DNA of 64,000 bases from Myxococcota bacterium (lineage in GTDB: Bacteria; Myxococcota_A; SURF-8): positions 5,728,001-5,792,000 of the forward strand of contig OZ223209.1 in assembly GCA_965140415.1 (NCBI GenBank), given 5' to 3'. Below are positions 5,679 through 36,364 of this stretch, piece after piece (the first letter of the stretch is position 1; the number at the start of each line of letters is the position of its first letter). Below the pieces are notes generated by a model. That model saw only the letters and a program-made list of their open reading frames with translations, had not been told where the DNA came from and did not search any database. The translations under genes were made by a program, and so were the position numbers.

Positions 5679-6077
5679 ATGACGAACCGGATTGACCCGA
5701 CAATTACGGGAGCCATCCGGCAAATTGCCGACCAGGGAGGGACGCAACCGTCAACCGGAACGACGTCGGGAGGATTGGCTGATTTCCAGTCTTTACTCGA
5801 AGACGCCCAACGGCAAGAGTTGAATTTCTCCAAACACGCGATGGAACGCTTGCAGCGACGGGAAATCCCGCTGAATCAGGATGATTTGAAGCTGCTTTCG
5901 GAAGGCATCAATCGCGCCAGGCAAAAAGGCTCTCGTGAATCACTGCTGCTCATGGATGACACGGCCTTTTTAGTCAATGTAAACGATCGCCGCATCATTA
6001 CGGCGGTTGGCGAAGAAGGCATGAAGAACAAGACGTTCACCAACATCGATAGCGCCATTCTGCTGTCGAGGAAGTAA
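5679..6077 (+). CDS. Flagellar operon protein, TIGR02530 family
   Basis: LNFSKHAMERL..R.I, KGSRESLLL, FTNIDSA motifs; between flgD and flgE. Confidence 0.9.
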   Translation: MTNRIDPTITGAIRQIADQGGTQPSTGTTSGGLADFQSLLEDAQRQELNFSKHAMERLQRREIPLNQDDLKLLSEGINRARQKGSRESLLLMDDTAFLVNVNDRRIITAVGEEGMKNKTFTNIDSAILLSRK

Positions 6078-7858: not shown

Positions 7859-8629
7859 ATGGATCTTGCAACCATAATCGGACTCGTTGGAGCGTTTGGC
7901 GTTATCGTCGTCGGTATCATGGTCGGTTCCTCGATGAGCATCTTCATCGACATTCCGTCCGTTCTGATCGTCGGCTTCGGAACGATCCTGGCGACAACCA
8001 CCAACTTCAGGTTGACGGATGTGATCAATTCGGTCCGCGTCATCAAGAATGCGTTTTTTGCGCCGTCGCTCCCATTGCAGGGCATCGCCAAGACCCTGAT
8101 CGAAATGTCCATCCGTGCACGTAAAGAGGGTTTGCTGGCCTTGGAAGCCTTGATCAGCGACAGCAAAGATCCATTCATCGCCAAGGGAATCCAGCTCGTG
8201 GTCGACGGACATGAAGTGGACGACGTCGACAAGATCATGTCGGCGGAAATCGAAGCCATCACCGAACGTCACCGGGTAGGCGCGGAACTCTTTTTGCAAG
8301 CAGGTACCTTCGCCCCGGCTCTCGGATTGATCGGAACCCTGATCGGTCTGGTGCAGATGTTGCAGAACATGAGCGACCCATCCAAAATCGGTCCGGCCAT
8401 GTCCGTCGCCCTGTTGACGACCTTCTACGGCGCGATTCTGGCCAACGTCGTGTTCAACCCCTTGGCCGGAAAACTGGCGATCCGCGCCAAAGAAGAAGAA
8501 CAGATGAAAGACATGGTGCTTAGCGGCATTCTGGCGATCAGCAACGGAGACAACCCGCGCATCGTCGAACAGAAACTGAATGCTTTCTTGTCTCCGAAAC
8601 TGCAAATCAGCATGTTCGAAGGCGAATAG
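7859..8629 (+). CDS. motA: Flagellar stator MotA/PomA
   Basis: ARKEGLLALE, APALGLIGTLIGLVQML, ALLTTFYG motifs (PomA-like). Confidence 0.96.
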   Translation: MDLATIIGLVGAFGVIVVGIMVGSSMSIFIDIPSVLIVGFGTILATTTNFRLTDVINSVRVIKNAFFAPSLPLQGIAKTLIEMSIRARKEGLLALEALISDSKDPFIAKGIQLVVDGHEVDDVDKIMSAEIEAITERHRVGAELFLQAGTFAPALGLIGTLIGLVQMLQNMSDPSKIGPAMSVALLTTFYGAILANVVFNPLAGKLAIRAKEEEQMKDMVLSGILAISNGDNPRIVEQKLNAFLSPKLQISMFEGE

Positions 8630-8670: not shown

Positions 8671-9393
8671 ATGCCTAAGAAGAAACAACCAGAGAAAGCC
8701 AAGGAAGACAAGTTCGCAGCCTTGTTCTTGTCCTTGTCCATCATTCTGTTGGCTTTCTTTATCCTGCTTAATTCCATTGCCGAGCTGGAAGCCTCGCGCG
8801 TGGATCGTGCCCTGCGCTCGTTGCAGGCGCTTTCGGCAGGATTGGGTGTATTCGGGCAGGGCGTCAGTGTGGATGTAAGCAGCGACCGTCCCCCGGTGGA
8901 CATGAGCAAACCGCAAGTATTTGAAAAAGCTTATGAAATGATGCAGAAGTCGCTGACCAAATGGGGTCGCGACATGAATGCCATCGATGCGTATGAAGAT
9001 GAGCGCCGCTTGGTGATCACCATGCAATCGACGGCTTTGTTCAGCAGCGGAAGCAATGCCCTTCATCCGCGAACCTTCGCTTTCCTGGATGATATCGGCG
9101 AGTTGGTCGAGCGTTTGCAAACGCCCATTACCGTGCAGGGGCATTCCGATTCCACTCCGTCTTCGGGTAAGTTTTCCAACTGGGAACTGGCCGCCTTTCG
9201 TGCCAACGAAGTAGCCCGTTATTTGTTGGAAGGCGTAGGTGTTCCAGATGTACTGGTAGAGGCGGAATCCTTTGGCGATACCAGACCGATGACCACCAAT
9301 GATACCGAAGAAGGTCGACGTAAAAACCGGCGTGTGGATCTGGTGTTCTACAAACGTGATCTGGCACGATTGCAGATCGTGGGAGGCGAGTGA
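8671..9393 (+). CDS. motB: Flagellar stator MotB paralog 1 (intact OmpA-like domain; TM lacks the conserved Asp)
   Basis: TM FAALFLSLSIILLAFFILL; GHSD..NWELAAFRA..FGDTRP..NRRV peptidoglycan-binding domain. Confidence 0.85.
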   Translation: MPKKKQPEKAKEDKFAALFLSLSIILLAFFILLNSIAELEASRVDRALRSLQALSAGLGVFGQGVSVDVSSDRPPVDMSKPQVFEKAYEMMQKSLTKWGRDMNAIDAYEDERRLVITMQSTALFSSGSNALHPRTFAFLDDIGELVERLQTPITVQGHSDSTPSSGKFSNWELAAFRANEVARYLLEGVGVPDVLVEAESFGDTRPMTTNDTEEGRRKNRRVDLVFYKRDLARLQIVGGE

Positions 9394-10154
9394 TGGCTAA
9401 AAGCGAGCCAAAACCAGTCGACCGCAATGCCTGGATGGCAACGTTCTCGGATCTGATCACGCTGATGCTGACCTTTTTCGTGTTGTTGTTGACCATGAGC
9501 ACGATTGACACCAGCCGCCTGCGCAGTTTGTTCCAGTACTTCCCCGGTGCGGGAATGATGATGGAAGGTGGCGCACCTTCTATCGTGGATTCCAAACGCG
9601 CCATGATCGAACCGTTTAAAATTTCCAGCCGCTCGGGTCAGAAACGCTGGTTGGACGAACAGGACGAAGAACCTTACCATGCATTGACGCGCTGGTTGGA
9701 GAGTCGGCAACTTGATAAAAACGTGAAAGTGATCCGACGCGGCGATGCCTACGAAATCCATTTGGATAACCGGGTCGTCTTCGGAGCAGGTTCGGTTGAA
9801 ATCAATCCGGAATTCGTTCCATTTCTGCATGAAGTGGCGCAGACCTTGAAAGAACAGACCGGCGCTCGCTTGCGTGTACAGGTTGTCTCCTCCGATCCCA
9901 ACGATCTGGCCCAACAGAGCGTATATAAGTCACTTTGGACCTTGGCAACCAAGCGGAGTTTTGAATTATCGCATGCACTAATCTCGCGCTTTAAAGCGGA
10001 TCGCAGGCGGTTATCGTTGATCGGATACGGAGAAGCGCGTAAAATTATGGCAGAGGGCCAGTCGGTAGAAACCTTCGACCAGCGTGTCGAGTTCATTTTT
10101 GTCGAAAACGACGATTCCGCCTCGGCGGCGGAGCCAGGCAAGAGAGAGGATTGA
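9393..10154 (+). CDS. motB: Flagellar stator MotB paralog 2 (canonical TM with Asp; divergent OmpA-like domain)
   Basis: WMATFSDLITLMLTFFVLLLTMS; C-domain degenerate (VVSSD, IGYGEAR, DQRVEF). Confidence 0.88.
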   Translation: MAKSEPKPVDRNAWMATFSDLITLMLTFFVLLLTMSTIDTSRLRSLFQYFPGAGMMMEGGAPSIVDSKRAMIEPFKISSRSGQKRWLDEQDEEPYHALTRWLESRQLDKNVKVIRRGDAYEIHLDNRVVFGAGSVEINPEFVPFLHEVAQTLKEQTGARLRVQVVSSDPNDLAQQSVYKSLWTLATKRSFELSHALISRFKADRRRLSLIGYGEARKIMAEGQSVETFDQRVEFIFVENDDSASAAEPGKRED

Positions 10155-10157
10155 TCC

Positions 10158-10691
10158 ATGGCCGTTGACGAAAAAGATGTGGAAGAAGAAGGATCCAGCC
10201 CCAAACCTAAAAAGGGAGGAAACTTCCTGATCGTGCTGTTGCTGGTGGTGAATCTGCTGCTGGTCGGTGGAATGGGCGCATACTTCATCCTTTTCGGCGG
10301 AATGGGAAAAGGCGGCTCCAATGCCGGTGAACTGGAAGGTGCTCAGGAAACCGGAGCGGAAGAAGTAAAAGAAGAAGTTTCCGACAAGTTGGGAACCATC
10401 GTTCAACTGGAGCCGTTTCTGGTCAACCTGGACGAGCCGGGAACCAACCGTTATCTAAAAGCGGTCATCCAGCTTGAAGTTGCCGCCAAGGAAACGGAAG
10501 AGGAAGTCAAATTGCGGGCGGTGCCGCTTCGCGATCTGGTGATTACCTACCTCTCCTCGCTCAATTACAGCCAGACCCAAGGTGTCGTCAACAAGGAAGT
10601 CATTCGCACCGCGTTGATCAAACAGATCAGCAATCTGTTGAAAACCGGAAGCGTAAAGAATTTGTACTTCACCGAATTCGTCATTCAGTAA
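10158..10691 (+). CDS. fliL: Flagellar basal body protein FliL
   Basis: Single TM, FLVNL, LRD.V, V.NLYFTEFVIQ C-terminus. Confidence 0.95.
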   Translation: MAVDEKDVEEEGSSPKPKKGGNFLIVLLLVVNLLLVGGMGAYFILFGGMGKGGSNAGELEGAQETGAEEVKEEVSDKLGTIVQLEPFLVNLDEPGTNRYLKAVIQLEVAAKETEEEVKLRAVPLRDLVITYLSSLNYSQTQGVVNKEVIRTALIKQISNLLKTGSVKNLYFTEFVIQ

Positions 10692-12144: not shown

Positions 12145-13467
12145 ATGTCGAAACATCTACTCGCACTCACGGCCTTGATGCTGTTTGCACTGACCCTGAT
12201 CGGTCCGGTTTCCACCGCGACGGCGGCTGGCAAGCAGCGAACCTTGACCGGTATTTCGGTCGAGGCCGACAACGAGACCGCGCGCATTACCTTCGATCTG
12301 GAAAAGAACAATGGCCGTCGTCTGGGAAAAGTCTATTTCTCGGGTAAAACGGTCAAGATTCTGGTCGAAGATACCAAACTGGCCAAGAATCGCGAGATCA
12401 AGATGCCGGGTCATGATGATACCCTGAAGGGCATCACCGTCAAGCAGAGCAAGTCGGATGTTGTCGTACAGTTGAAACTGGAAGACAAAATCACGTCCAT
12501 TCTGGAACATCTGGTTTTCGAGCCTTACGCCAATCACTCGGTATTGACCATTCGCAAACCCGGTTTCTACGCTGCACGTGCCAAAGCGGTAGAGGAACTG
12601 GCAGCAGCCAAGCCAAGCCCCGCCGAAACCAAAGTGGTCCAGGTGCAAGCCGTAGCCCCTGTAAAAGCAAAAGCCGACAATAACAACAAGTTGGTAGACA
12701 TGCTGCCTTTGGTGGAACCGGAAGCGAAACCGGTCGAACCCAAAAAAGCCGTAGCCGCCGAAAAAACGGTCAGCAAACAGGAAACCCTGGCTTCGCTGCG
12801 TAAAGGCATGGAAAAGACTCCCGCCGAGGCTACGGAAGTTGCGGCGGTTCCTGTCGCCGCTTCGTTGGGCACAGCACCCGCTGGAGGCGTTTCCTCAACC
12901 GGAACCTCCGGTACTTCGGGCATGTCCAAGCCTTTCAAAGTCGGCAATGCCGCACCGGATCTGACCGGTTTGTACGTCATGACCGTGGCCGTGCTGCTGA
13001 TCGCTGCCGTCTGGTTCTTTTTCCGACGTGGACGCCTGGTGTCCTTTACCAAAGTCGAAGAACCGATTCAGGTGGTCAAATCCACCAACATCGGTCATCG
13101 TCAACGCTTGTTGGTTGTCGAAACGGAAGGCAAACGCTTATTATTGGCTGCCAGTGACAAGCAGGTCAATTTCCTGTCGGACCTGACGGTCTCCGACAGC
13201 ACCGCGTTACAAAAGCGCGAAGCACCAGCCGAACCCACAAACGTGCATCCTTTCCGTCAACAAAGTGCCGCTCAAAGCGAAGCCGACACCTCCAGCATGT
13301 TCGGTCAGGCTCAGCAGCCTACTCAACCAGCCAGTGGGCGTCCCAGCTACTTCGGCGGCAAAGCACCTCAGATGAATTCCGGTGCTGCACCCAAACCCCG
13401 GTTCGAAGAACAGTCACAACCGATGACCTTCGCCGAAAAACTGCGCGCGATGAAGCGGAGGGCCTAA
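12145..13467 (+). CDS. fliO: Extended FliO/FliZ family protein with N-terminal periplasmic (AMIN-like) domain
   Basis: Between fliN and fliP; signal peptide, TM, then IQVVKSTNIGHRQRLLVVETEGKRLLL FliO domain. Confidence 0.75.
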   Translation: MSKHLLALTALMLFALTLIGPVSTATAAGKQRTLTGISVEADNETARITFDLEKNNGRRLGKVYFSGKTVKILVEDTKLAKNREIKMPGHDDTLKGITVKQSKSDVVVQLKLEDKITSILEHLVFEPYANHSVLTIRKPGFYAARAKAVEELAAAKPSPAETKVVQVQAVAPVKAKADNNNKLVDMLPLVEPEAKPVEPKKAVAAEKTVSKQETLASLRKGMEKTPAEATEVAAVPVAASLGTAPAGGVSSTGTSGTSGMSKPFKVGNAAPDLTGLYVMTVAVLLIAAVWFFFRRGRLVSFTKVEEPIQVVKSTNIGHRQRLLVVETEGKRLLLAASDKQVNFLSDLTVSDSTALQKREAPAEPTNVHPFRQQSAAQSEADTSSMFGQAQQPTQPASGRPSYFGGKAPQMNSGAAPKPRFEEQSQPMTFAEKLRAMKRRA

Positions 13468-15475: not shown

Positions 15476-16567
15476 ATGGCCGAAGAACAATTCGAGCGTA
15501 CAGAGCCCGCCACACCCCGAAGGCGTCAGAAGTTTCGGGAAAAGGGGCAGGTGGCAAAAAGCCAGGAAGTCAACGCCGTGGCGGTGCTGGTGGGTGTACT
15601 GCTTTATTTTTATTTCGCCGGAGAAACCATCTTCGAGCGTATGAACGTTCTGATGGGGCAGAATTTCAAAATCGCCGCCGATGTCAATCTCGATATCAAC
15701 GGCATGTACAGTATCATCGGGACGACCATCGAACTTTTTATCGAACTGCTCTTCCCCCTGTTCATCATTATTCCCGTGTTGTCCGTACTCACCAATATCA
15801 GCCAGACCGGCTGGCTGTTTACGGCGAAACCTCTGGTGCCGGATCTGAAACGCATCGATCCGATCAGCAAGTTTCAGCAAAAATTCTTGAGCATGAAGCT
15901 GTGGACCGATACGGCAGTGAACATCTTGAAAATTTCGGCTCTTACTTCCGTGATCTGGTGGGTCATTGCCGGTAAATACGACGGCTTGACGGAACTGATG
16001 TTCATGAGCCCGATGCTGTTGACGCAAACGATCATGATGGACATCCTGGAAATCATGCTGAAAACCATCCTGTTGTTCGTCGTGGTGGCCATAGCCGACT
16101 TCGCCCAGCAGTGGTACCAGCTTGAAAAACAGATGAAGATGACCAAGCAGGAAATCCGGGATGAATTCAAGGACATGGAAGGTGATCCGCATATGAAGGG
16201 CAAAATGCGTTCGCGTATGCGTGAGATTTCATTGAACAAAATGATCGATGTCGTACCCGAAGCGGACATGGTCATCACCAACCCGACCCATCTGGCCATC
16301 GCCATTCGTTACAAGCAGGGTGTGGACACTGCACCAAAAGTGCTGGCCAAGGGCAAAGGGTTCTGGGCGGAACGCATCAAGGCGATTGCACGCGAAAACA
16401 ACGTCGAGGTGATCGAAAACAAGCTACTGGCGCGCTCACTATATAAATCGGTTAAAATCGGCGGAGAAGTTCCACCTCAATTCTATCGCGCTGTGGCCGA
16501 ATTGCTGGCTTACGTCTACCGCTTGCAGCAGAAGGTCGGAAGTCAGCCGCAAACGAGACAAGCCTGA
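15476..16567 (+). CDS. flhB: Flagellar export protein FlhB
   Basis: RTEPATPRR, KMTKQE.RDE.K..EGDP, NPTH autocleavage motif. Confidence 0.97.
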   Translation: MAEEQFERTEPATPRRRQKFREKGQVAKSQEVNAVAVLVGVLLYFYFAGETIFERMNVLMGQNFKIAADVNLDINGMYSIIGTTIELFIELLFPLFIIIPVLSVLTNISQTGWLFTAKPLVPDLKRIDPISKFQQKFLSMKLWTDTAVNILKISALTSVIWWVIAGKYDGLTELMFMSPMLLTQTIMMDILEIMLKTILLFVVVAIADFAQQWYQLEKQMKMTKQEIRDEFKDMEGDPHMKGKMRSRMREISLNKMIDVVPEADMVITNPTHLAIAIRYKQGVDTAPKVLAKGKGFWAERIKAIARENNVEVIENKLLARSLYKSVKIGGEVPPQFYRAVAELLAYVYRLQQKVGSQPQTRQA

Positions 16568-16575
16568 GATCTCGT

Positions 16576-16857
16576 TCAGGGGCAACCCACGCTTTCCCAT
16601 TCACTCATCGGCTTGACTTGAGATTCGAAGTGAGCCGCCATCCAGCCAAAGCAATCCGAATATCCCTGGCAGTCTTCGCAGTGCAAGAGGCAGTCCTGCC
16701 GCTCATCGCTTGTTTCCGAAAGGCAGATTTCATCGCAATTGTAACAGGTGCCGTCGTAATCCCCGGAATCGTCGCCGCCGCCGCAAGCGGCAAAGCTAAT
16801 TGAAATCAGCAACAGCATCGGCAGGAAAATCAATCTGAAGTTTTGTAAGATGTGCAT
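16576..16857 (-). CDS. Small Cys-rich lipoprotein
   Basis: Lipobox FAAC followed by GGGDDSGDYDG and multiple Cys. Confidence 0.7.
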   Translation of the reverse strand: MHILQNFRLIFLPMLLLISISFAACGGGDDSGDYDGTCYNCDEICLSETSDERQDCLLHCEDCQGYSDCFGWMAAHFESQVKPMSEWESVGCP

Positions 16858-16880
16858 CAGTGGTCCTCTTTCGCGTTTTC

Positions 16881-17128
16881 AGTAACTACTGGAATGAGTA
16901 CCAGCAAAGGACAGCTAGCTTAACAAAGGGTGGCACGTGGCCAAGCGAAATGGAATGGAGCTTGCCCGTGTTCTTGTTTTGGCTCATGGGCAACCTGCGG
17001 TTCGCCCATGCCACCCACCACCGATATTATTGGTGTTTTCGGACTTACCCCCTCGCCGCTACAAGAAGACATCGCCAGTAATGAAAATAACTCTTCTAGT
17101 AACTACTGGAATGAGTACCAGCAAAGGA
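16881..17128. repeat. Two identical 31-bp direct repeats (16881-16911, 17098-17128)
   Basis: AGTAACTACTGGAATGAGTACCAGCAAAGGA occurs twice, bracketing the family B element. Confidence 0.85.
16928..17016. repeat. Palindromic ~89-bp REP/MITE-like element (family B), copy 1
   Basis: GGGTGGCA...TGCCACCC termini with two internal hairpins; near-identical inverted copies at 62565 and 62829. Confidence 0.85.
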
Positions 17129-17304
17129 TGTACCAGAATTCTTGATGTGCCGGAAAGCGGTACTTCAAAACCGCTGCGGCATGGTTTTTCATGGTTGCAA
17201 TACGTGTAGGACTTGACAAATTCTAGCCATTACGCTTATATGGGGCCATAAATCCGCGAGCTTCGCGGGTATAACGACGTTTACCATAGGTGGGAGGTTT
17301 ATCG

Positions 17305-17634
17305 ATGCGGTCAGCATGGGCGGTAGTAATAGTGGCGGTAGTAGCCGGAATGTGGCTCATGGCCTGTAGTGATAGTGAAGAATGGACCACCGAGCGTCGT
17401 TGCGTCGAGGATAAACTGATGCTGGTTTACGTGTTCGAGGACGACCTGGACGCCAACAACCAGCCCAAAGAAGAGTTTTCCCTGCTCGAAGATTGCACAG
17501 CCACCGGCTTGGTTTGCGACGATTCCAACCCGAGCGAGTTGCAATGTGCAGAAGGGGGAAGCACTCCCGATGGCGATGGCACCACCGACGGCGACACTGC
17601 CGATGGCGACACGACCGTTGACGGAGACGAATAG
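17305..17634 (+). CDS. Lipoprotein with C-terminal DGD repeats
   Basis: GGAGG before ATG 17305; lipobox LMAC; PDGDGTTDGDTADGDTTVDGDE tail. Confidence 0.75.
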   Translation: MRSAWAVVIVAVVAGMWLMACSDSEEWTTERRCVEDKLMLVYVFEDDLDANNQPKEEFSLLEDCTATGLVCDDSNPSELQCAEGGSTPDGDGTTDGDTADGDTTVDGDE

Positions 17635-17944
17635 TCAAGCCAGCTTGACACTCGGGCGTCAATGTCGGAACACCGGAATTTATATCTGCCGGATGAAGAC
17701 ACGTAACCGCTGGTAAATACAAAGTTTCCGTTTTTTGGCGCGAGCTTTGCGAGCAAAAGCGACGCAGATTGTTTGAAATCGTAATTTGCTTGAAAGTAAC
17801 ATTCGCTGTAGGGCTGGTTGAGGCGACAGGCGAATGTTATCTTTTTATGATTCGATAGCAGTAGACTGGGGCTTGAATACCCGTTAAAGATGTGGGTCCG
17901 CAACGCCGGATCCCGATTGAAAGAACAACGAGGAGGAGAGAATC

Positions 17945-18751
17945 ATGCGTAAAAGTAATTGGATCTTGTTTTTAGTCGTGTTTGCGATCTCGAGTATGTT
18001 GCTGGTGGCCTGTGCCGCGGACGAATGGGATTGCAATTCGTACTGCGAGAAAATGTTGGAATGCGGGGATATTCCGGCATCGGGGTTGGATAGTTGTATC
18101 TCCAAGTGCGATGCGATCAGAACTTGCATCGAATCCAGCACAATGAGCATCGAATGCCAGGATGCCCACACGGCCTATAGGGAGTGTTTGCAGGGCCTGA
18201 CCTGTTCGGTTTACGATAATGAAGTGGACGAATCGCATGTTTGTTATAGCAAACTGACAGCGATTGACACGGTCTGCACCGTTCAGGACAGCTCGAAATA
18301 CGATGAATGCCAGAGCGCGGAAGCGGTTGATGGCGATGTGGACGGCGACGGCACCATCGATGGCGACATGACGACCGATGGCGACATGACGACCGATGGA
18401 GACATGGTTGACGGCGATGTGGACGGCGACGTGGACGGCGACTCGACCGAACCGGAATGCACCGTCGATGATGATTGCTTGACCGCGGAAATCTGCGATG
18501 ACACCGGCGCCGAGCCGCTGTGCACCGTGGCTTGCAGCGACAATTTCGTCAACGAAGACTGCGGCGGCGTGTATGAATTCACCACCACCCGCTATGCCAC
18601 CGGCGACACCAAAGACGAAACCTGCCAGGAAGTGCCCTGCACCACCAACGACGACTGCGCCGGCCTGGGTGCCTGTGACGATCCGGAACAGAGCAGCACC
18701 AAGTCCTTCATCTGCGACGCGGACAAGTGCAAGCGTACCACCACGAAATAA
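17945..18751 (+). CDS. Cys-rich lipoprotein with central DGD repeats
   Basis: Lipobox LVAC; two Cys-rich domains linked by VDGD/TTDGD repeats. Confidence 0.8.
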   Translation: MRKSNWILFLVVFAISSMLLVACAADEWDCNSYCEKMLECGDIPASGLDSCISKCDAIRTCIESSTMSIECQDAHTAYRECLQGLTCSVYDNEVDESHVCYSKLTAIDTVCTVQDSSKYDECQSAEAVDGDVDGDGTIDGDMTTDGDMTTDGDMVDGDVDGDVDGDSTEPECTVDDDCLTAEICDDTGAEPLCTVACSDNFVNEDCGGVYEFTTTRYATGDTKDETCQEVPCTTNDDCAGLGACDDPEQSSTKSFICDADKCKRTTTK

Positions 18752-18857
18752 CCACCTTTCAACGGGGACGGTTTGTATGGGGTCACTTTATGGTGGCCCC
18801 AATTTTTGTTTAAAAGGCTCTATTTTCCAATGAGTATAACTGCTTCGAATTAAACTA

Positions 18858-19430
18858 CCTTCGCCTAAAGGCGAAGGATTTATGGGTGGTCGTTCAACGG
18901 CGTGACGACTCAAGTCGTCACGCATCTTCGCCCTCAACTCTGAAATTGGCTCCACCGTCCGGCGGTTCCCCTTCTTCCTGCAATCGGATATATTCCTGAA
19001 TCGTCTCATCCGTCACATTACCGCTGCTCGCAACAAAGTAGCCTCGCGCCCACAAATGACGACCCCAGAAAGCTTTTTGCACGTGCTTGAACTCCATCAT
19101 CAGTTTCCGTGACGATTTTCCTTTGATCTTCTGCATGATCTTGCTTGGAGACAAATTCGGAGGACACGACACGAACAGATGAACGTGATCTTTGGCTACA
19201 TGCCCTTGCAGTATTTCGATCTCATTCGCCTTGCAAACTTCAATTACCAAATCCCTTAGTCGCTTGCCTACCGCGCCGGAAAGAATGGGTTTCCGATACT
19301 TCGTTATCCAAACAAAGTGATACTTCAGGTCGAAACGCGAATGCGAACTGGTGCGATATTTCTCCATGACAAAGACATTATCACGCTCAATTGAAAAACC
19401 TCAAGGTTTCGCCTAAAGGCGAGGGATTTA
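18858..19430 (-). mobile_element. IS200-type insertion sequence (tnpA only); ends approximate
   Basis: Nearly identical subterminal hairpins TTCGCC-TAAA-GGCGA(A/G)GGATTTA at about 18860 and 19408 flank a Y1 transposase. Confidence 0.88.
18918..19367 (-). CDS. tnpA: IS200/IS605 family Y1 (HuH) transposase
   Basis: YHFVWITKYRK, DHVHL (HuH), KGKSSR, LWARGYF, YIRLQ catalytic Tyr. Confidence 0.96.
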   Translation of the reverse strand: MEKYRTSSHSRFDLKYHFVWITKYRKPILSGAVGKRLRDLVIEVCKANEIEILQGHVAKDHVHLFVSCPPNLSPSKIMQKIKGKSSRKLMMEFKHVQKAFWGRHLWARGYFVASSGNVTDETIQEYIRLQEEGEPPDGGANFRVEGEDA

Positions 19431-29094: not shown

Positions 29095-29676
29095 CTATCG
29101 ACGCCTGGCCAGCCAGTCGCGCAGGTTTTTGCGATGCGCGATCACGATCCAGCCTGCGCAGCAAAGACAACCCACCACCGAAAGCGCCATCCACCCGGAA
29201 ACGGAAACAAGGCCCAAAATCAACACGGCCAGCATACCGAATGACGCGATGAACGGCTCTTTGACCCAGCGATGAATCAGCACCCAGCCCGCCATGGAAA
29301 CAACGGCGTATCCGGGAGCCAGCGCCAACACGAAACCCAGCAGATTCGCTACGCCTTTACCGCCTCGAAAACCGTGAAAACAGGGATAGCGATTGCCGAT
29401 GAGTAACGCCAGCGCCACCCAGGGCAGCCAGTGGGGTGACAAGAGCCATTGGGCAACCAGGGCGATGGTGATCGAGCGCCCCAGATCCAGCAGCAGCACC
29501 GCCGCCGCCGTCAGTCGTCCATGCTGGCGGTAGACGTTCACCACACCGGGATTGCCGCTGTGCAACTTGCGCGGATCGGGATGTCTCAATATCTTTAAGG
29601 TTAGAATCGCGAAGTTGATCGACCCTGCCAGATAGGCAGCCAGAGCGGAGATGAGCAGCAGCAGCGTTTCATTCAT
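29095..29676 (-). CDS. plsY: Glycerol-3-phosphate acyltransferase PlsY family
   Basis: YLAGSINF, DPR..HSGNPG..N..R, FRGGKGVA; start ATG 29676 overlaps upstream stop. Confidence 0.9.
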   Translation of the reverse strand: MNETLLLLISALAAYLAGSINFAILTLKILRHPDPRKLHSGNPGVVNVYRQHGRLTAAAVLLLDLGRSITIALVAQWLLSPHWLPWVALALLIGNRYPCFHGFRGGKGVANLLGFVLALAPGYAVVSMAGWVLIHRWVKEPFIASFGMLAVLILGLVSVSGWMALSVVGCLCCAGWIVIAHRKNLRDWLARRR

Positions 29677-31166
29677 GGGCGCTCTCCATCCAGCACCAGC
29701 AGAGTAAACACATGTTCGTCTACTTCCATATGAACGGCCCAATGCTGGCGCTCGTCGATCAGCACAAGGCTTCGATCTCGCTCGATTTCTACAGCTTCCA
29801 CCGTCTTCCAGCACATGGGCAGGGGGCGATCCAGGGCTTTGGCGGCAGCTTCCTTTAGCGACCAGATGCGCGTGGCCGCTTGCATTTCCGATAATTCGGA
29901 TTGCTCCACCAAGCGGCGCTCGGCGGGATTCATAAAGCTTTGTTGTCCTTTAATAACGCGCTCTCCGATTCGCTCCACATCCACGCCCAGCGGCTTCGAT
30001 CCGCCCACCGCAACGGCAAAGCGCTCATCGTGCGAAAGGCTGCAATACATCGGATTCTGTTCGTTTTTTCCGATCCGGCACAGGGGGCGTTGCGCGTCAT
30101 CAAACGTTTCGATGTCTGTCGCGTCGCAGCGATTTTCTCCGCTGCTCAATCTGGCCAGACGTTTGAGCGCCGCTCTTCCGGCGAGATAGCTTTTCCAGCG
30201 TCGGGGGTGGAAGTTTGCGCTCCGCGCGATTTCCGATTTGGATAACCACCGGTTTTCAAAAGGAATCACCGCGTCCAACTCGACAATCGCCAGTTGTTCG
30301 CAACGCTGCTTGAATGCAGAGAAATCAGGAGGTTGAAGCTGCTGCAACCAATCCGGAACCGTCATCTTTCCTTTAAAGATGTTCCCCATGCGCAGTCCGA
30401 GCAGGCTTTCACACAAAACGCCGTCCGCTTGCAGCACATACAGATCGTAGCGCAACACGTCGCCTTCCGGGGCTTTCGGGAAGATGCGGCAAATGTAGCG
30501 CCCGCCCGCTTGAGTCGGCACATGGATGCACCGTTGCTCGTAGCCAACCGGAATGCCAACGATACCCTGGGCGTATTGTCCCCAGGCGCAGGCGATATGA
30601 AACGCCGCATCGAGCACGAAGGGCGAACCGAGCGGCGCTTCACGTTCAGAATGCGAAGGCGCTAGGATCTCCCCGAGTGCACCATCGGGTGTTAAAAAGA
30701 TCTCGCCGGTCGCGTTGTGAAATGAAGCACCAAAGGGCACCAGTTCGTTGTATAGCGTTTCACCGGAGATGCGGCAGGCCACGCCTTCCGGCGCGGCGAG
30801 TCGATCCAGCGGTACAAGCGCAAGTTCCGGCAACTCACCGAAATGCAAACGGATATGCTCCAGGTTTCTGCGGATGCCGCTTTTGGGCGATTGAAAACTG
30901 GAGAGCAGGCGCGCTCCGCCGTCTTCGTCAAATTCGGCCAGCGCCTCGATTGTATTTTTCTCACCTTGCGGCGGCAAGGGCAGAAAGCGTCCGAATTGGG
31001 CGTTTTCGCTCTGTGTGACGCAAGCCGTCGGGTCTTGCTGCAAACGGGCAATGGCCAGACTTTGCAAGCCTTCCACGGCGGGATAAACAGCTTTGCCGAA
31101 GAAATGATGGTCGTAGAGATAGGATTCCAAGGGAAAAGAAAGCGGCGCTCGTTGCGAATCGCTCAT
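29673..31166 (-). CDS. Fusion of PKS-type dehydratase (double hotdog) and Sfp-type 4'-phosphopantetheinyl transferase
   Basis: DHHFFGKAVYP (HxxxGxxxxP) and LDAAFH DH motifs; SLSHD, GVDVE, WSLKEAAAKA PPTase motifs; ATG 31166 overlaps thioesterase stop. Confidence 0.85.
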   Translation of the reverse strand: MSDSQRAPLSFPLESYLYDHHFFGKAVYPAVEGLQSLAIARLQQDPTACVTQSENAQFGRFLPLPPQGEKNTIEALAEFDEDGGARLLSSFQSPKSGIRRNLEHIRLHFGELPELALVPLDRLAAPEGVACRISGETLYNELVPFGASFHNATGEIFLTPDGALGEILAPSHSEREAPLGSPFVLDAAFHIACAWGQYAQGIVGIPVGYEQRCIHVPTQAGGRYICRIFPKAPEGDVLRYDLYVLQADGVLCESLLGLRMGNIFKGKMTVPDWLQQLQPPDFSAFKQRCEQLAIVELDAVIPFENRWLSKSEIARSANFHPRRWKSYLAGRAALKRLARLSSGENRCDATDIETFDDAQRPLCRIGKNEQNPMYCSLSHDERFAVAVGGSKPLGVDVERIGERVIKGQQSFMNPAERRLVEQSELSEMQAATRIWSLKEAAAKALDRPLPMCWKTVEAVEIERDRSLVLIDERQHWAVHMEVDEHVFTLLVLDGERP

Positions 31167-31642
31167 TTGGGAAAGCTCTCCCACATCGTAACCGTTTTCG
31201 GATCGACCGCCACCACCGTGCCGCGTGCGTTCAACGCGCAGTGCTCGGTGAAGCCACGGCAGACCAGCCTGCCGGTTTCGGCATTCGTGATGACGTAATC
31301 GAACAGGATCTTGACCTTTTCCAGTTTCGCCGGGCGCGTATGCACCCACATCGGATCGTCGTAGTAAAGTGGATGATGGTAGCTGATTCCCAGGTTGACG
31401 ATGGGGTACACGTAGCCGCTGTCTTCCACTTCGCGGTAGGGATAGCCCACCTCGCGCATGAGGCTGGCGCGTCCCAATTCGAAGTAGCGCAGGTAGTTGG
31501 CGTGATAAACGACCTGCGAGCGGTCGGTGTCGGCGTATAAAGGCCGATGAAAAACACGATGCCACACCAGCCCGCCGTGGCTGTCGCGCACGAAGGCGGC
31601 CTGCTCGTCACTGGCTTCCGGCTTAAAAGGTTCAGGTCGCAT
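31163..31642 (-). CDS. Acyl-CoA/ACP thioesterase (YbgC/4-HBT hotdog family)
   Basis: YADTD..VVYHANYLRYFE.GR motif. Confidence 0.9.
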   Translation of the reverse strand: MRPEPFKPEASDEQAAFVRDSHGGLVWHRVFHRPLYADTDRSQVVYHANYLRYFELGRASLMREVGYPYREVEDSGYVYPIVNLGISYHHPLYYDDPMWVHTRPAKLEKVKILFDYVITNAETGRLVCRGFTEHCALNARGTVVAVDPKTVTMWESFPK

Positions 31643-32908
31643 TTACACTCCTCGAAACACCACGCAGCAATTGGTGCCGCCGAATCCGAAGGCATTGCTG
31701 ATCATCAATTCCACCGACAGCTTACGCGCTTCGTCGGGAACCACATCGAGTTCATCGAAATCGGGATCGGGCAGGTGGTTGATAGTCGGTAAAATCATTC
31801 CCTGCCGCATGCCATGAATAGAGAGCGCCGCTTCGATAGCTGCGCTCGCACCCAGGGTATGCCCGAGCTGACTTTTATTCGACGAAACCGGGATCTTGCT
31901 CAACCGCTCCCCGAATACTTCCCGTAAGCAGGCGACTTCGTTGGAATCGCCTTTGGAAGTGGAGGTGCCGTGGGCGTTGATGTACTGGATGTCCTCCGGC
32001 TTCAGTTCGGCATCGTCCAGAGCCTGTCGAATCGCCTGCACGATGGTCGGCTGGTTGGGGCGTGTGAAATGATACGCATCCGAACTCCAGCCAATACCCA
32101 GCACTTCGGCATAGGCCGTTAAGCCATGCGCCTTGATCGCATCTTCGGAAGCCAGCACCAATACGCCGCAACCTTCGGAAAGCACAAAGCCTTTGCGGTC
32201 ACGGCTGAAGGGGCGCGAGGCCTGGCCCGGATCCAGAAACGCGCGGTCTTTTTCCGTCACCTTGACCGTGGCGTTCATATTGGCGAAACCGTGAATGATT
32301 TCCGGCATGATCGGCATATCCACGCCGCCTACCAAGGCGAATTCCAACTCGCCGTCGCGGATCATGCGCGAGGCGATGCCGGTCGCGTGATTGCCCGAGG
32401 CACAGGCGCCCTGCGGCGAAAAGACAGGCCCGGTGTAACCCAGCAAAATCCCCGCCTTGCCTCCGGGCAGGTTGGCGCAGAGATTGGGCAGTAAAAAAGG
32501 ACTCACGCGATTGGGGCCGCGTTCGGCCAGGTTCGTCATGGCGACGCGGAAGGCATCGTGGCCGTTGATGGCGCTACCGATCATGCTGGCGGTAAGCCCG
32601 GCGATCTCCGGTGTAATCTCCAGCCCGGCGTGCTTGAGCGCGTCGCGACTGACAGCCATAGTCAGAATCACGAAGGCCGCGTTCCAGTTGGACACCTCGC
32701 GCTGATCGGTGAAGTCCAGTTCCGATGGGTTCCAGTCGGGAATTTCGCCGACCACGTTACAGGTGGACGCCACCTCGCAGCGTGTTACCTTACGAAATCC
32801 CGCGTCGCCTTGTACGGCTCTTTTCCAGGTATCTTCAAAGCGGCTCCCCAACGGCGTCGCCGCTGCATAACCCGCTACGAATACACGTCTATTTAAAGGT
32901 GCTTTCAT
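31643..32908 (-). CDS. Beta-ketoacyl-ACP synthase (FabF-like) 2
   Basis: GACASG (Cys), INAHGTST (His), KSQLGHTLGA (His), SNAFGFGG. Confidence 0.93.
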   Translation of the reverse strand: MKAPLNRRVFVAGYAAATPLGSRFEDTWKRAVQGDAGFRKVTRCEVASTCNVVGEIPDWNPSELDFTDQREVSNWNAAFVILTMAVSRDALKHAGLEITPEIAGLTASMIGSAINGHDAFRVAMTNLAERGPNRVSPFLLPNLCANLPGGKAGILLGYTGPVFSPQGACASGNHATGIASRMIRDGELEFALVGGVDMPIMPEIIHGFANMNATVKVTEKDRAFLDPGQASRPFSRDRKGFVLSEGCGVLVLASEDAIKAHGLTAYAEVLGIGWSSDAYHFTRPNQPTIVQAIRQALDDAELKPEDIQYINAHGTSTSKGDSNEVACLREVFGERLSKIPVSSNKSQLGHTLGASAAIEAALSIHGMRQGMILPTINHLPDPDFDELDVVPDEARKLSVELMISNAFGFGGTNCCVVFRGV

Positions 32909-32935
32909 CGGTTCAATCCACTACGATGCAGGTCG

Positions 32936-34183
32936 TCAACCGACCCGCTTGAAAACGGTACAGGCGTTGCAGCCTCCGAAACCGAAGGCGTTTTTCAGCA
33001 TGAATTCCTGTTCGAGCGCGCGCGCGCCCTCGGAGACACAGTCCAGTTCCAGTTCGGGATCGGCAGTATAGTTGATGGTCGGCAGCAGCTTTTGATTCCG
33101 CAATGCTTCCATGGCGAAAATGCTTTCGATGGCGCTGCTGGCTCCCATGGCGTGACCGATCTGCGATTTATTGGCGCTCACGGGAGGAATGTTCTTACCG
33201 AAAACTTCGTGCAGCGCTTCGACTTCCACCTGATCGCCGACTTTGGTAGAGGCGGCGTGGCCGTTGATGGCGTCGATGTCCTGCGGTTGCAGCCCCGCAT
33301 GGGAAATCGCCTCGGTAATACAGCGGGTGATGGTCGGTTTATGCGGTGCAACGAAGTGATGCGCATCGGCGCTCATGCCCCATCCGGCCAGTTCGATATT
33401 GTAACCAAGACCGTGCGCGTCCGCGAATTCCTTGCTGGCGATCACGATGCAGCCGGAGCCTTCGCTGATGACGAAACCGCGCCGATCGATGGAAAAGGGA
33501 CGGCTGGCGCGTTCGGGCGCTTCCGGCAGATTCGGCTTGTCTTTATAGGCTCCGTTCATGGTGGCGAAACCGGCGGTGATCGGTTCGACCAAAGGACAAT
33601 CCACCGCGCCGCAAACGGCTACATCGGCCATACCCGACTGAATGAACATCGCGCCGATGATCATCGAAGTGCTGCCGGTGGCGCAGGCGGTAACGGTCGT
33701 GACAATCGGCCCGGTCGCGCCGGTTAAAATGCTGACCTTGCCGCCGACCATGTTGATACAGGAATTGGGATTGACAAAAGGCTTGGGCAGTTTGCCTTCG
33801 GCGATCATCAGCCGATCTGCGTGCAATACCGCATCCTGCCCGCCTACGGCGGTGGAAAAGGTCGTCGCCACGCGCGGAGCCAGTTCCGGCGTAATCTCCA
33901 AACCGGCGCGCTGCAAAGCCCGATGCACGGCCAGCAATCCGTATTTGAAAATCGGGGAGGTCCACTGCGCCAGGGCGCGCGGCGAAAGAAAGGGATACTC
34001 GCTAACATCCACATCGCCGATCTGACCGGAGATTTTCACCGGGAAGGCATCGTTGTAGGCAAAGCGAGTCAGTTCCGATACGCCGCTTTCTCCGCGCTCG
34101 GCACGCTCCCACTGCTCTTGCAGGGTTACGCCCAGCGGCGAAAGCGCGTCATACCCCAGAATGACTATTGTACGATCCGACAT
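32936..34183 (-). CDS. Beta-ketoacyl-ACP synthase (FabF-like) 1
   Basis: TACATG (Cys), INGHAAST (His), KSQIGHAMGA (His), KNAFGFGG. Confidence 0.93.
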   Translation of the reverse strand: MSDRTIVILGYDALSPLGVTLQEQWERAERGESGVSELTRFAYNDAFPVKISGQIGDVDVSEYPFLSPRALAQWTSPIFKYGLLAVHRALQRAGLEITPELAPRVATTFSTAVGGQDAVLHADRLMIAEGKLPKPFVNPNSCINMVGGKVSILTGATGPIVTTVTACATGSTSMIIGAMFIQSGMADVAVCGAVDCPLVEPITAGFATMNGAYKDKPNLPEAPERASRPFSIDRRGFVISEGSGCIVIASKEFADAHGLGYNIELAGWGMSADAHHFVAPHKPTITRCITEAISHAGLQPQDIDAINGHAASTKVGDQVEVEALHEVFGKNIPPVSANKSQIGHAMGASSAIESIFAMEALRNQKLLPTINYTADPELELDCVSEGARALEQEFMLKNAFGFGGCNACTVFKRVG

Positions 34184-34227
34184 TGGGGACTGTCCATCAA
34201 GGTTAGGGGCTGCTGTGGCGCTGCATC

Positions 34228-35229
34228 TTACCAGGGAATAAACTTATACAGCTTGGCGAACATTTCGTACACTTCGATCCAGTTCTGGAAATCCTGGCTG
34301 CTTTCCATGTGCGCCCGCTTGTTGACCATTACCCAGCTCATGTGCGCTGCGCCATCCTTGCAGGTTTTGCAGTCGCGCGTGGCCGAAGTGCAACAGCGAT
34401 GGATCGTTTCCTGATCCGCACCCCAGCGGGTGAAGTGAATCAGCCGCTTGGTACCCGCCGGGCGGTTGTCGATCTGTTCGCTGACGGAGGGACATTCCAG
34501 CCAGCCGAATTCACGTCCCAGCATTTTACCGTTAGTGATGACCTCGTGGTAATATTTACTGGAAATGACCGTATCCGGATAACGCTCCATCAAACCGTCC
34601 ATCTCGTCGCGCACGTCGGCCAGGTTGTGTTCGTCCCAGACCAGCCCTTCCACGTCTTCGTCGTTGCTGAACAACTGGTAATGCACTTTCAGTCCGGCGT
34701 TGCGAATGAATTGCGTGTAGCGCTCGATTTCGCCGGTAGCCACCAGGTTGGGAGTGATGGTGTACAGGTAGTAGGTGTAGGGGTCGCCTTCGTAATTGGC
34801 CATTGAAATCTTGAAGACATCACGCCCGCGCAAGGCGCGTTCCTCTTTTTCTCCGCCCCACAGCGAAATGCCGACCATCATGTCGGGAAAACGTTCGCGC
34901 GGCACTTTGATGATGCCGTTGGTGGCGCAGTAGGAAGGAATGCGCTTGTAAAAAGCTTCCACGCGATCCAGAAACAAGGTCGGCTCGCCGCCGATCAGAA
35001 TCGCGAGATTCACACCGCGTTCCTTTTCACGATCCACAAAGGCTTCCCAGTCGGCCAGTTCCTTTTTCTCCTCCAGCTTGTGCTCGTCCGAAGAAAAGAA
35101 GAAGCAGCCTTTGCAACGCAGGTTGCAGCGGTTGGTCACGTCGTAAATCGAGGAACGGATATTCAGTTTCGCAATGCGCTTGTAACGCTCGTACCATTGC
35201 TCGTCTAACAGAGAACTGACGGTCTTCAT
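34228..35229 (-). CDS. Radical SAM protein B with C-terminal Cys cluster
   Basis: CNLRCKGC, GGEP, C-terminal C...RCC....DCKTC. Confidence 0.9.
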   Translation of the reverse strand: MKTVSSLLDEQWYERYKRIAKLNIRSSIYDVTNRCNLRCKGCFFFSSDEHKLEEKKELADWEAFVDREKERGVNLAILIGGEPTLFLDRVEAFYKRIPSYCATNGIIKVPRERFPDMMVGISLWGGEKEERALRGRDVFKISMANYEGDPYTYYLYTITPNLVATGEIERYTQFIRNAGLKVHYQLFSNDEDVEGLVWDEHNLADVRDEMDGLMERYPDTVISSKYYHEVITNGKMLGREFGWLECPSVSEQIDNRPAGTKRLIHFTRWGADQETIHRCCTSATRDCKTCKDGAAHMSWVMVNKRAHMESSQDFQNWIEVYEMFAKLYKFIPW

Positions 35230-35278
35230 CGTATCATCCTATTTGGGAATGAGTTCGTATCCCGGTAAGTAAAGCGGT

Positions 35279-36364
35279 TCATTCACGCTCGCCGGCTTGC
35301 GGCGGCTCAATGAAGCGGCGGCATAAATTGGGTTGTTTGTCGTAGCCCGTCACCCAGACCGCCAGGTAGGTATCCACGTAATCCAGCCAGGAGCGGAAGG
35401 TATCCGGGTCGATGGCGTGGCGATAGAGTTTGCTGGTTACGACCGCCGAACCGGCGGCGTAATGGCGGCAGTCGCCGCAATCGGTATCGGGAACGCAGCA
35501 GGCAGCGTCGCGATCCCAGTTGAGATCCGTTCGGTACTGGCGGAAGGAACGCCCCAGCCCGACAGCGGTAGACGGATTCATGCGCGGATAAGGACAGGCG
35601 AACAAATCGTGCAGGCCGTTGGTATGCGTATGCGCCACGGTGCTGTAATGCGAAAACAACACCGTTTCCGGGTATTGGTCCAGCAGATCCACCATCACCC
35701 GACGAACGTGCGCCAGCGATTCGGGCGTATGTCGCAACGCGCCATTATAGCCGACCGGCGCGGAAAACATGTTGAAACTGATGGTGCAGTCGTTTTTCGC
35801 CAGCAACTCGGTCACTTCGTAAGCCTGCTCGATGTTTTCGCGGCAGAAGGTATAAATGAAGGTGGCGCGCTTGTCGCCGCTGTAGTTTTCGATCTGTCGC
35901 TCCAACAGATTCTTCACACCGCGCACTTTCGCGCTTGTATCGTCGTTCCCCCAGCTACTGACGTGCAGACGATAACCGATGGCATCGTCGATGCGCTTGA
36001 ACCCGTTGGTGGCGATACAACCCAGGGGTTGCTCGTCGTAACAGACTTCCAACAGCTTCGGCAACAATGACGGCTCGGCTCCGGCGAGCACGACAAAGGT
36101 GACGCCGCGCTCTTTTTCCTTGCGCATCAAGTCGCGCCAGGCTTCGGGATCTTTGTTCTGCTGGGCGAACTGCTTTTCGCCTTCGTAGTAGTAGCAGCCG
36201 TCGCAACGAATGTTGCAGGTATTGCTGATATCATATGTCGATTCGCGCAAAAAGAAGTACTTACGCACCCGCTCGAAGCGCTCTCGGATATCGGGCATTT
36301 GCAACAGTTCCGAGAATTTGTATTTACGCCCGGATTGCTGCGCGTTCAGGTCCATTGCTTCCAT
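35279..36364 (-). CDS. Radical SAM protein A (paralog of B) with C-terminal Cys cluster
   Basis: CNIRCDGC, GAEP, C-terminal C...ACC....DCGDC. Confidence 0.9.
   Translation of the reverse strand: MEAMDLNAQQSGRKYKFSELLQMPDIRERFERVRKYFFLRESTYDISNTCNIRCDGCYYYEGEKQFAQQNKDPEAWRDLMRKEKERGVTFVVLAGAEPSLLPKLLEVCYDEQPLGCIATNGFKRIDDAIGYRLHVSSWGNDDTSAKVRGVKNLLERQIENYSGDKRATFIYTFCRENIEQAYEVTELLAKNDCTISFNMFSAPVGYNGALRHTPESLAHVRRVMVDLLDQYPETVLFSHYSTVAHTHTNGLHDLFACPYPRMNPSTAVGLGRSFRQYRTDLNWDRDAACCVPDTDCGDCRHYAAGSAVVTSKLYRHAIDPDTFRSWLDYVDTYLAVWVTGYDKQPNLCRRFIEPPQAGERE

Follow-up and report, generated by a model that had tools for sequence, protein, structure and literature searches.

A flagellar operon of a Myxococcota bacterium (GTDB lineage Bacteria; Myxococcota_A; SURF-8) carries one motA gene followed by two unlike motB genes. 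The product of the first, MotB1, lacks the ion-binding aspartate of the MotB membrane helix and, as sequence comparison indicates, belongs to an old and widespread clade of aspartate-less MotB paralogues. The locus lies in contig OZ223209.1 of assembly GCA_965140415.1, within the stretch of 64,000 nucleotides (nt) from position 5,728,001 to 5,792,000 that is here called the window; coordinates count from its first letter unless stated otherwise. The chances seem about even that MotB1 and its aspartate-bearing neighbor, MotB2, form the unlike pair of axle subunits in a MotA5-MotB1-MotB2 stator unit with a single ion site. An asymmetric stator with one conducting and one anchoring subunit had been proposed in a preliminary description of this sequence. 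The asymmetry is still the best-supported reading, given the single MotA, the adjacency of the genes, the constraint on the MotB1 helix and a model of the periplasmic parts, but MotB1 is not simply the anchoring subunit. What was observed directly is the gene anatomy of the locus, the inventory of the genome, the age, clade membership and fixed order of the pair, and the residues that each protein has kept or lost.

The motA gene (7859–8629, + strand) encodes a PomA/MotP-like protein of 256 residues that matches the Pfam MotA_ExbB family (100.9 bits); among NCBIfam models it comes closest to PomA (267.8 bits) and MotP, without reaching the cut-off of either. After a spacing of 41 nt comes the MotB1 gene (8671–9393, +; 240 residues), which overlaps the MotB2 gene (9393–10154, +) in a TGATG (9391–9395, +). 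The TGA stop codon of MotB1 (9391–9393) shares one base with the ATG of MotB2 (9393), the junction reading ...GGAGGCGAGTGATGGCT, and a GGAGG stands 6 nt upstream of this ATG. A GTG at 9390 would give MotB2 254 residues; the ATG, with its GGAGG, is the likelier start and gives 253. The earlier view of one motA followed by two coupled motB genes is borne out by this overlap. The two MotB proteins share 22% identity over their whole length in a pairwise alignment (E 1e-11).

MotB1 consists of an N-terminal tail, a membrane helix, a plug helix, a disordered linker and an OmpA-like domain. Its AlphaFold2 model (mean predicted local distance difference test (pLDDT) score of 81) has a helix at residues 14–57, covering the membrane segment and plug, disorder at residues 57–79, a further helix at residues 81–102 and an OmpA-like fold, a modelled layout that corresponds to the MotB architecture. 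In the membrane segment (residues 15–36; 8713–8778, +), which reads FAALFLSLSIILLAFFILL, Ser21 (codon 8731–8733) falls in the MotB aspartate column (Asp32) in both pairwise and multiple alignments, just as the preliminary description had it, and Phe15 falls in the column of the conserved tryptophan (E. coli Trp26). The match to the MotB_plug family (PF13677; cut-off 24 bits) is borderline, hmmscan giving 22.7 bits and the scan of the genome 25.1. The OmpA-like peptidoglycan-binding domain (residues 123–220; 9037–9330, +) scores 66 bits against Pfam PF00691 and holds the complete set of four motifs, GHSD, NWELAAFRA, FGDTRP and NRRV, in agreement with the canonical domain first attributed to it.

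The loss of the ion site is general in the clade to which MotB1 belongs (the B1 clade, 87 sequences). The aspartate column is occupied there by serine in 49 sequences, alanine in 28, threonine in 8 and glycine in 1; it is aspartate in MotB2, in 80/80 partner proteins and in 18/18 single MotBs. The tryptophan column holds Phe (43), Ile (28), Leu (6) or Val (4) in the B1 clade, and tryptophan in 79/80 partners and 18/18 single MotBs. The Thr/Ser column of ordinary MotBs has become Leu or Met and the next Thr column Ile, Met or Val, so that the losses all lie in the inner half of the helix, on the ion face. Because the Trp, Thr and Asp of this face are replaced, a unit built from MotB1 alone would be inert. 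The outer half of the helix, with the stretch LLAFFILLN, is invariant or nearly so across the clade: L27, A28, F29, F30, I31, L33 and, in the plug region, S50 are found in 87/87 sequences, and N34 in 85/87. Plug-region columns common to ordinary MotBs (D/E40, K/R43 and S50) are likewise retained, and the fraction of sequences carrying the majority residue falls from 0.72 in the membrane helix to 0.56 in the plug, 0.46 in the OmpA domain and 0.29 in the linker. Such strong constraint on the outer helix and plug suggests that MotB1 still packs against MotA and is not a plain membrane anchor; by this conservation, it looks built for the MotA ring rather than for mere anchoring. A substitute ion site was also considered in the upstream Asp13 (in KEDKF), whose placement at the ion-binding position would have undone the initial proposal. 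This candidate was rejected as unlikely: the residue is Asp in only 41/87 sequences, precedes the modelled helix and lies 8 residues before the site.

MotB2 has a helix of the conducting type, with the canonical W14, T17 and D20 in NAWMATFSD (Asp codon 9450–9452) and a MotB_plug score of 57.6 bits against the cut-off of 24; here too the first reading holds. Its OmpA-like domain (9780–10067, +) is degenerate and, at 22.2 bits, remains under the Pfam cut-off of 27.2. The sequence V-V-x-S stands in place of GHxD, LWTLATKRS in place of NxxLSxxRA and DQRV in place of NRRV; the GHxD Asp and both Asn residues are therefore lost, while two arginines, that of LSxxRA and the second of NRRV, are retained. 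The degeneracy noted in the preliminary description is thus real as to GHxD and NRRV, with the qualification that two arginines and, as modelled, the OmpA-like fold survive the loss of the motifs. The AlphaFold2 model of MotB2 has a mean pLDDT of 79, exceeding 90 across about residues 100–215. Its best Foldseek match in the PDB is the periplasmic domain of Helicobacter pylori MotB (3s0w, E 4e-10), and the periplasmic domains of Vibrio PomB, Bacillus subtilis MotS and Salmonella MotB are further top matches (probability 1.0).

The genome, a single contig of 5.98 Mb, offers these two proteins one MotA. MotB_plug is found above cut-off only in MotB1 and MotB2, two other matches being insignificant (E 0.75 and 0.81), and MotB2 is thus the only aspartate-bearing MotB of the genome. 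Eight genes match MotA_ExbB, and only the motA of the window adjoins MotB-type genes; the other seven each adjoin an ExbD/TolR or DUF2149 gene and, on this gene context, are assigned to Tol/Ton-type motors. With a single flagellar-type MotA and no other MotB, one MotA must serve both MotB1 and MotB2. Five relatives (G001, G003, G004, G008 and G012) likewise have exactly two PF13677 matches each, namely the tandem pair. All MotAs beside the pair, in the window and in loci L043 to L122, have GT in the third helix and TT in the fourth, which we take to be the sodium-type PomA pattern. A MotA signature marking the pair was sought in these motifs and rejected, since GT and TT are identical in pair-bearing loci and in relatives with a single MotB.

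The pair is not confined to this genome. A search of one genome per prokaryote species with the signature LLAFFI[LM]LN, common to the aspartate-less proteins found in a protein search with MotB1, gave 351 pattern hits; tblastn confirmed 96 of these, and the best 80 were taken further. Carriers among these best 80 include Myxococcota (Bradymonadales, Microvenator, Polyangia and Myxococcia), Desulfobacterales, Desulfarculaceae, Nitrospirae, Nitrospinae, Tectomicrobia, Sumerlaeota and one Thiohalorhabdus metagenome-assembled genome (MAG), and Desulfocarbo indianensis, Dethiosulfatarculus sandiegensis and Desulfosudis oleivorans are cultured or named carriers. The two closest matches to MotB1 among the 80 loci come from Myxococcota MAGs (60% and 54% identity). 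Nearer to the source genome, the tandem pair was found in four relatives of the same family (G001, G003, G004 and G005), one of the same order (G008) and one of another family of the phylum (G012); in the G001–G012 relatives, the aspartate column of the first gene holds Ser, Ala or Gly. Elsewhere in the phylum, L020, L022, L025 and L028 carry one ordinary MotB ahead of fliL, and L021, L023 and L024 have a MotAB pair and no fliL within the fetched stretch.

The order of the genes is fixed. The aspartate-less gene has an open frame in 80/80 loci and in 80/80 is directly followed by an Asp-bearing motB, a count made up of 74 pairs together with L067, L070 and L113 and with L049, L056 and L121, where the contig ends after the first part of the partner. 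A motA gene lies directly upstream in 78/80 loci, the two others being L115, which is cut, and L046, and fliL follows the pair across the 80 loci, so that the arrangement motA-B1-B2-fliL of the window is the common one. In L046 (positions 1–2500), from a Nitrospirae MAG, two ABC-transporter ATPase genes stand ahead of the pair and of fliL and fliM, perhaps through rearrangement or an assembly error. As the same arrangement recurs in 80/80 related loci, it is not due to chance. The in-frame B2 start closest to the B1 stop, taken in each of the 74 pairs, overlaps that stop in 19, lies 0–30 nt beyond it in 36, 31–120 nt beyond it in 13 and elsewhere in 6, a measure that is biased toward short distances by the choice of the nearest start. 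The median distance from the B1 stop to the aspartate codon of the partner, a bound free of any assumption about start sites, is 24.7 codons.

When a profile built from the B1 alignment was run against a library of 1.84 billion cluster representatives, 183,589 of them matched at E ≤ 0.001. Of the top 150, 86 are aspartate-less by pattern (45 Ser, 36 Ala, 4 Thr and 1 Gly), 26 have Asp, 25 are long multi-domain proteins and 13 are off-pattern, about 8 of which are aspartate-less by eye. Some high-scoring representatives (P0133 and P0210) keep the tryptophan and have Gly or Ser at the aspartate column; here the ion site may have been lost independently, outside the LLAFFILLN clade. A FastTree built from 179 distinct MotB rows places all 84 rows without the aspartate, window MotB1 included, in one clade (support 99*), and the 77 partner rows on one side of a branch with support 90; this is a quick, unrooted tree in which long branches were flagged. 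The 18 single MotBs need two changes in it, and those that precede fliL in the same phylum sit nearest to the partner group. This topology fits one old duplication, after which the two genes were inherited jointly.

How general the complementary loss seen in the window might be was judged from a key triad in the wall-binding domain, made up of the aspartate of GHxD, the arginine of LSxxRA and the second arginine of NRRV. Among the 80 paired rows scored are those of the window and of six relatives; three of these relatives duplicate scanned genomes and fall in the class where only B1 is intact. The triad is intact in both proteins in 42 pairs, in the aspartate-less protein only in 25, in the partner only in 12 and in neither in 1. 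The class with only B1 intact holds the window and consists mostly of Myxococcota-type loci; the class with only the partner intact is scattered, mainly in Desulfobacterales; and the sole pair with neither intact is L018, with GHE in its first gene. Mapped onto a tree of MotA from 74 loci, the losses require at least 4 changes for the B2 triad and at least 9 for the B1 triad. The alignment of tandem pairs suggested in the preliminary description therefore recovers the reciprocal loss as a type found in 25 of the 80 pairs, the window included, but not as a family rule: by these alignments, complementary degeneracy is lineage-specific and real in the lineage of the window. The aspartate, on the same comparison, was lost first and throughout the clade, and the anchors decayed later and repeatedly in one gene or the other. 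In the lineage of the window, neither MotB looks sufficient alone, to judge from the residues kept. Since 42/80 partners have a canonical wall domain and 12/80 MotB1s lack a key residue, the conserved role of MotB1 is not simply anchoring. If the two anchors belong to a shared unit, either should be dispensable but hardly ever both, and the pairs agree with this, in small numbers and among related loci. The most extreme anchor decay among the pairs is seen in a Polyangia-like group (L071, L083, L094, L097, L108, L110 and L120), whose partner MotBs have a deletion of the loop from GHxD to SNW and a shortened C-terminal half.

The periplasmic parts of the window pair (MotB1 residues 90–240 and MotB2 residues 85–253) were co-folded with alignments. 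The interface score (ipSAE) was 0.77 (0.77, 0.77 and 0.78 in three runs), with 0.01 for the best of 3 controls; the benchmark mark for this score was met by 116/157 solved complexes and 2/215 mismatched pairs. Contact agreement among the runs was at least 77%, with a pLDDT of at least 81 for the partner. In the model, both chains contribute the helix after the SNW motif and the next edge strand, and the MotB2 domain, though decayed, remains competent to pair with that of MotB1. Two further lines were tried as evidence and dropped. The predicted interface of the window pair has an acidic-versus-basic look; over 77 pairs, however, the charges show a Spearman correlation of -0.18 (p 0.11; 0.00 for the rest of the domain), and B2 is more positive than B1 in only 31/80 pairs. 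In the membrane helices, B1 position 23 (Ser, Phe or Met) tracks B2 position 24 (Thr, Met or Phe); this pattern follows taxonomy and so gives no independent support.

In the proposed mixed unit, the membrane helices of MotB1 and MotB2 would both insert into a single MotA pentamer, each chain supplying a plug helix, and their two OmpA-like domains would pair in the periplasm. The ion-binding aspartate would come from MotB2 only, and the competent peptidoglycan anchor, in the lineage of the window, from MotB1. According to the model in the available portion of a preprint (Deme et al.), the two MotB chains of a canonical unit bind ions alternately, with a turn of the MotA ring by about 36 degrees at every event; a one-site unit would presumably take up one ion per 72 degrees of MotA rotation instead of one per 36 degrees. 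That MotB1 and MotB2 share one MotA ring, and that a unit with one ion site turns, we infer from the evidence above. Several points weigh against this arrangement. In the same preprint text, Trp26 is described as completely conserved and its replacement in W26A as abolishing E. coli motility; without this residue, MotB1 may take up another packing within the ring or fail to pack there. The model of Deme et al. has both chains alternating at every 36-degree step, and a one-site unit may or may not turn. The periplasmic domains of MotB, PomB and MotS are homodimers in solved structures, and the heterodimer may have scored well through the likeness of its chains to these; the periplasmic model does not separate heterodimers from homodimers. 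The net charges of the modelled interface are not significantly opposite across the 77 pairs. In 42/80 pairs MotB2 looks like a complete, ordinary MotB that could work as a homodimer, the loci are mutually related so that the counts overstate independent events, and L046 has no adjacent motA.

Several of these points would suit other arrangements. MotB1 may form a homodimeric, non-conducting MotA5(MotB1)2 unit, a brake, placeholder or regulator that competes with MotA5(MotB2)2 for sites at the rotor; a brake or regulator was also the alternative named in the preliminary description. The homodimer is the known state of MotB, MotB1 retains the layout of a stator subunit (helix, plug and linker) while its Asp and Trp columns are lost, and the apparent self-sufficiency of MotB2 in 42/80 pairs would leave it free to act alone. 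In the lineage of the window and in 25/80 pairs, however, MotB2 is without key wall-binding residues, and a canonical anchor would be missing from an all-MotB2 unit. It would also be odd for a regulator that acts by competition to have its gene within the core operon, where its stop codon often overlaps the next start codon, and to be kept across several phyla, and Pfam and NCBIfam profile scans found no regulatory domain in MotB1; we regard this arrangement as quite unlikely. If MotB1 instead stood outside the MotA ring, it could be a membrane-tethered, MotY-like periplasmic anchor or scaffold that holds the periplasmic domain of MotB2, or the wall, around the motor. Its canonical OmpA domain (66 bits), the predicted contact with MotB2 (ipSAE 0.77 against 0.01 for the best control) and the absence of the Trp that contacts MotA in E. 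coli would all suit such a role. A plain anchor helix would not be so constrained, however, and in MotB1 the membrane helix and then the plug are the most conserved parts (seven positions invariant in 87 sequences), with the OmpA domain less so; moreover, a key wall-binding residue is lost from MotB1 itself in 12/80 pairs. This, too, seems rather improbable.

A third arrangement shares its data with the mixed unit. Units of MotA with (MotB2)2 might coexist with MotB1-MotB2 units and possibly with (MotB1)2 units, in a ratio that tunes torque, ion cost or anchoring to conditions, and the full wall-binding motifs of both partners in 42/80 pairs would allow this. Adjacent and often overlapping genes favor fixed ratios, however, and we give such mixed populations a slim chance. 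There is hardly any chance that MotB1 is a decaying, functionless duplicate. It has indeed lost residues that are essential in E. coli MotB; the frame is nonetheless open in 80/80 loci, the clade extends over several phyla with invariant positions, and at least 86 of the best 150 representatives from the library of 1.84 billion proteins are aspartate-less, so that decay is already contradicted by the conservation data.

The mixed unit of MotB1 and MotB2 lends itself to a bolder speculation, which we consider unlikely: a naturally occurring 5:1:1 rotary unit that has one ion site would be a low-cost gear, with half the ion cost per turn of the MotA ring, that arose once and was kept in energy-limited lineages. 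The Ser, Ala or Thr of MotB1 would act as a permanently neutral aspartate, every second 36-degree step being ion-free, and the keepers would be sulfate reducers, relatives of syntrophs, Nitrospirota and flagellated Myxococcota. Asymmetry of the axle would have come first and would then have permitted decay of the wall anchor in either partner. Whatever the arrangement, a conserved natural stator with one aspartate-less axle protein would provide a direct test of the alternating two-aspartate 5:2 model. If a one-site unit turns, the coupling of ion binding to rotation and the number of ions per turn become fixed; otherwise, the aspartate-less protein has a different and new role in the motor. 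The answer would also bear on mixed axles in other motors with two unlike B-type partners, such as AglRQS, and experiments are possible since cultured carriers exist.

The pair stands in an operon with the order fliG (C-terminal end)-fliH-fliI-x-fliK-flgD-flbD-flgE-motA-motB-motB-fliL-fliM-fliN-fliO-fliP-fliQ-fliR-flhB. The gene that follows it, fliL (10158–10691, +), matches Pfam FliL with 74.5 bits. The partial order flgE-motA-motB-fliL-fliM-fliN presumably recalls spirochaete operons. Between flgD and flgE lies a small FlbD-type gene (5679–6077, +; Pfam Flagellar_put), and fliO (12145–13467, +) encodes a protein of 440 residues with a long N-terminal extension, the FliO domain covering only residues 292–372. 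The operon ends after flhB (region 15476–19367), and an IS200-like Y1 transposase gene (18918–19367, -) is found shortly beyond its end. Flagellin genes and flhA are found elsewhere in the genome, flhA about 0.5 Mb from the operon (5193670–5195643 of the contig), and the flagellar system of the source genome looks intact. Farther along the window is a lipid- or polyketide-like cluster (29673–36364, -) that encodes a protein with PS-DH and phosphopantetheinyl-transferase domains, two ketoacyl-synthase proteins and two radical SAM proteins.

Compared with known stators, the locus is a variation on a familiar plan. As in the canonical MotA5MotB2 and PomA5PomB2 systems, a MotA_ExbB gene is followed by a MotB-type gene, in a flagellar operon and beside fliL, and MotB2 keeps the Trp, Thr and Asp columns; unlike in these systems, there are two unlike B genes per A gene, and MotB1 has neither the aspartate nor the tryptophan, two residues to which Deme et al. 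give a central place. MotY-like accessories are OmpA-like wall-binding proteins that serve the stator and are not known to have a MotB-type membrane helix or plug. MotB1 differs from them in having both, as its most conserved parts.

The Myxococcus AglRQS gliding motor also combines one MotA/TolQ-like subunit with two different B-type partners, of which AglQ presumably carries an essential Asp, and a mixed axle has been considered for it. According to the portion of a review available (PMC9389320), it is not known whether AglQ and AglS form a hetero- or homodimer, and our literature search found no structure paper on AglRQS. As far as the sources cover them, AglQ and AglS differ from the window pair in being TolR-like, not of the OmpA-domain MotB type, and Agl is not flagellar. 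Another proposed mixed axle, from prediction only, is that of the transpore-helix vWA proteins encoded beside tolQ-like genes, which in the available part of a 2025 paper (PMC12204202) are described as mainly heterologous pairs predicted to lie inside a TolQ-like pentamer; unlike the pair described here, each monomer keeps its aspartate, and domains and function differ.

The nearest arrangement of genes is the motA-motB1-motB2 operon of Aquifex aeolicus. In the sections consulted, Takekawa et al. (2015; PMC4525482) give its two MotBs as 97% identical over the N-terminal and membrane regions and as strongly different in the periplasmic ones, and each MotB worked with MotA as a chimera in E. coli. 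Being nearly identical in the helix and each functional with MotA, the Aquifex MotBs are, on that account, two conducting alternatives. The window locus resembles this operon in having one motA and two tandem motBs with divergent periplasmic regions. It differs from what those sections describe in that its first MotB has no ion site and its two membrane helices differ at the Trp, Thr and Asp columns, with 22% identity overall. A literature search found no description of an aspartate-less MotB paralogue or of such a unit, in a coverage that leaves out most subscription journals, so that absence is not proof; in the accessible part of the MotK paper (PMC10954123), the aspartate is mentioned only for ordinary MotB.

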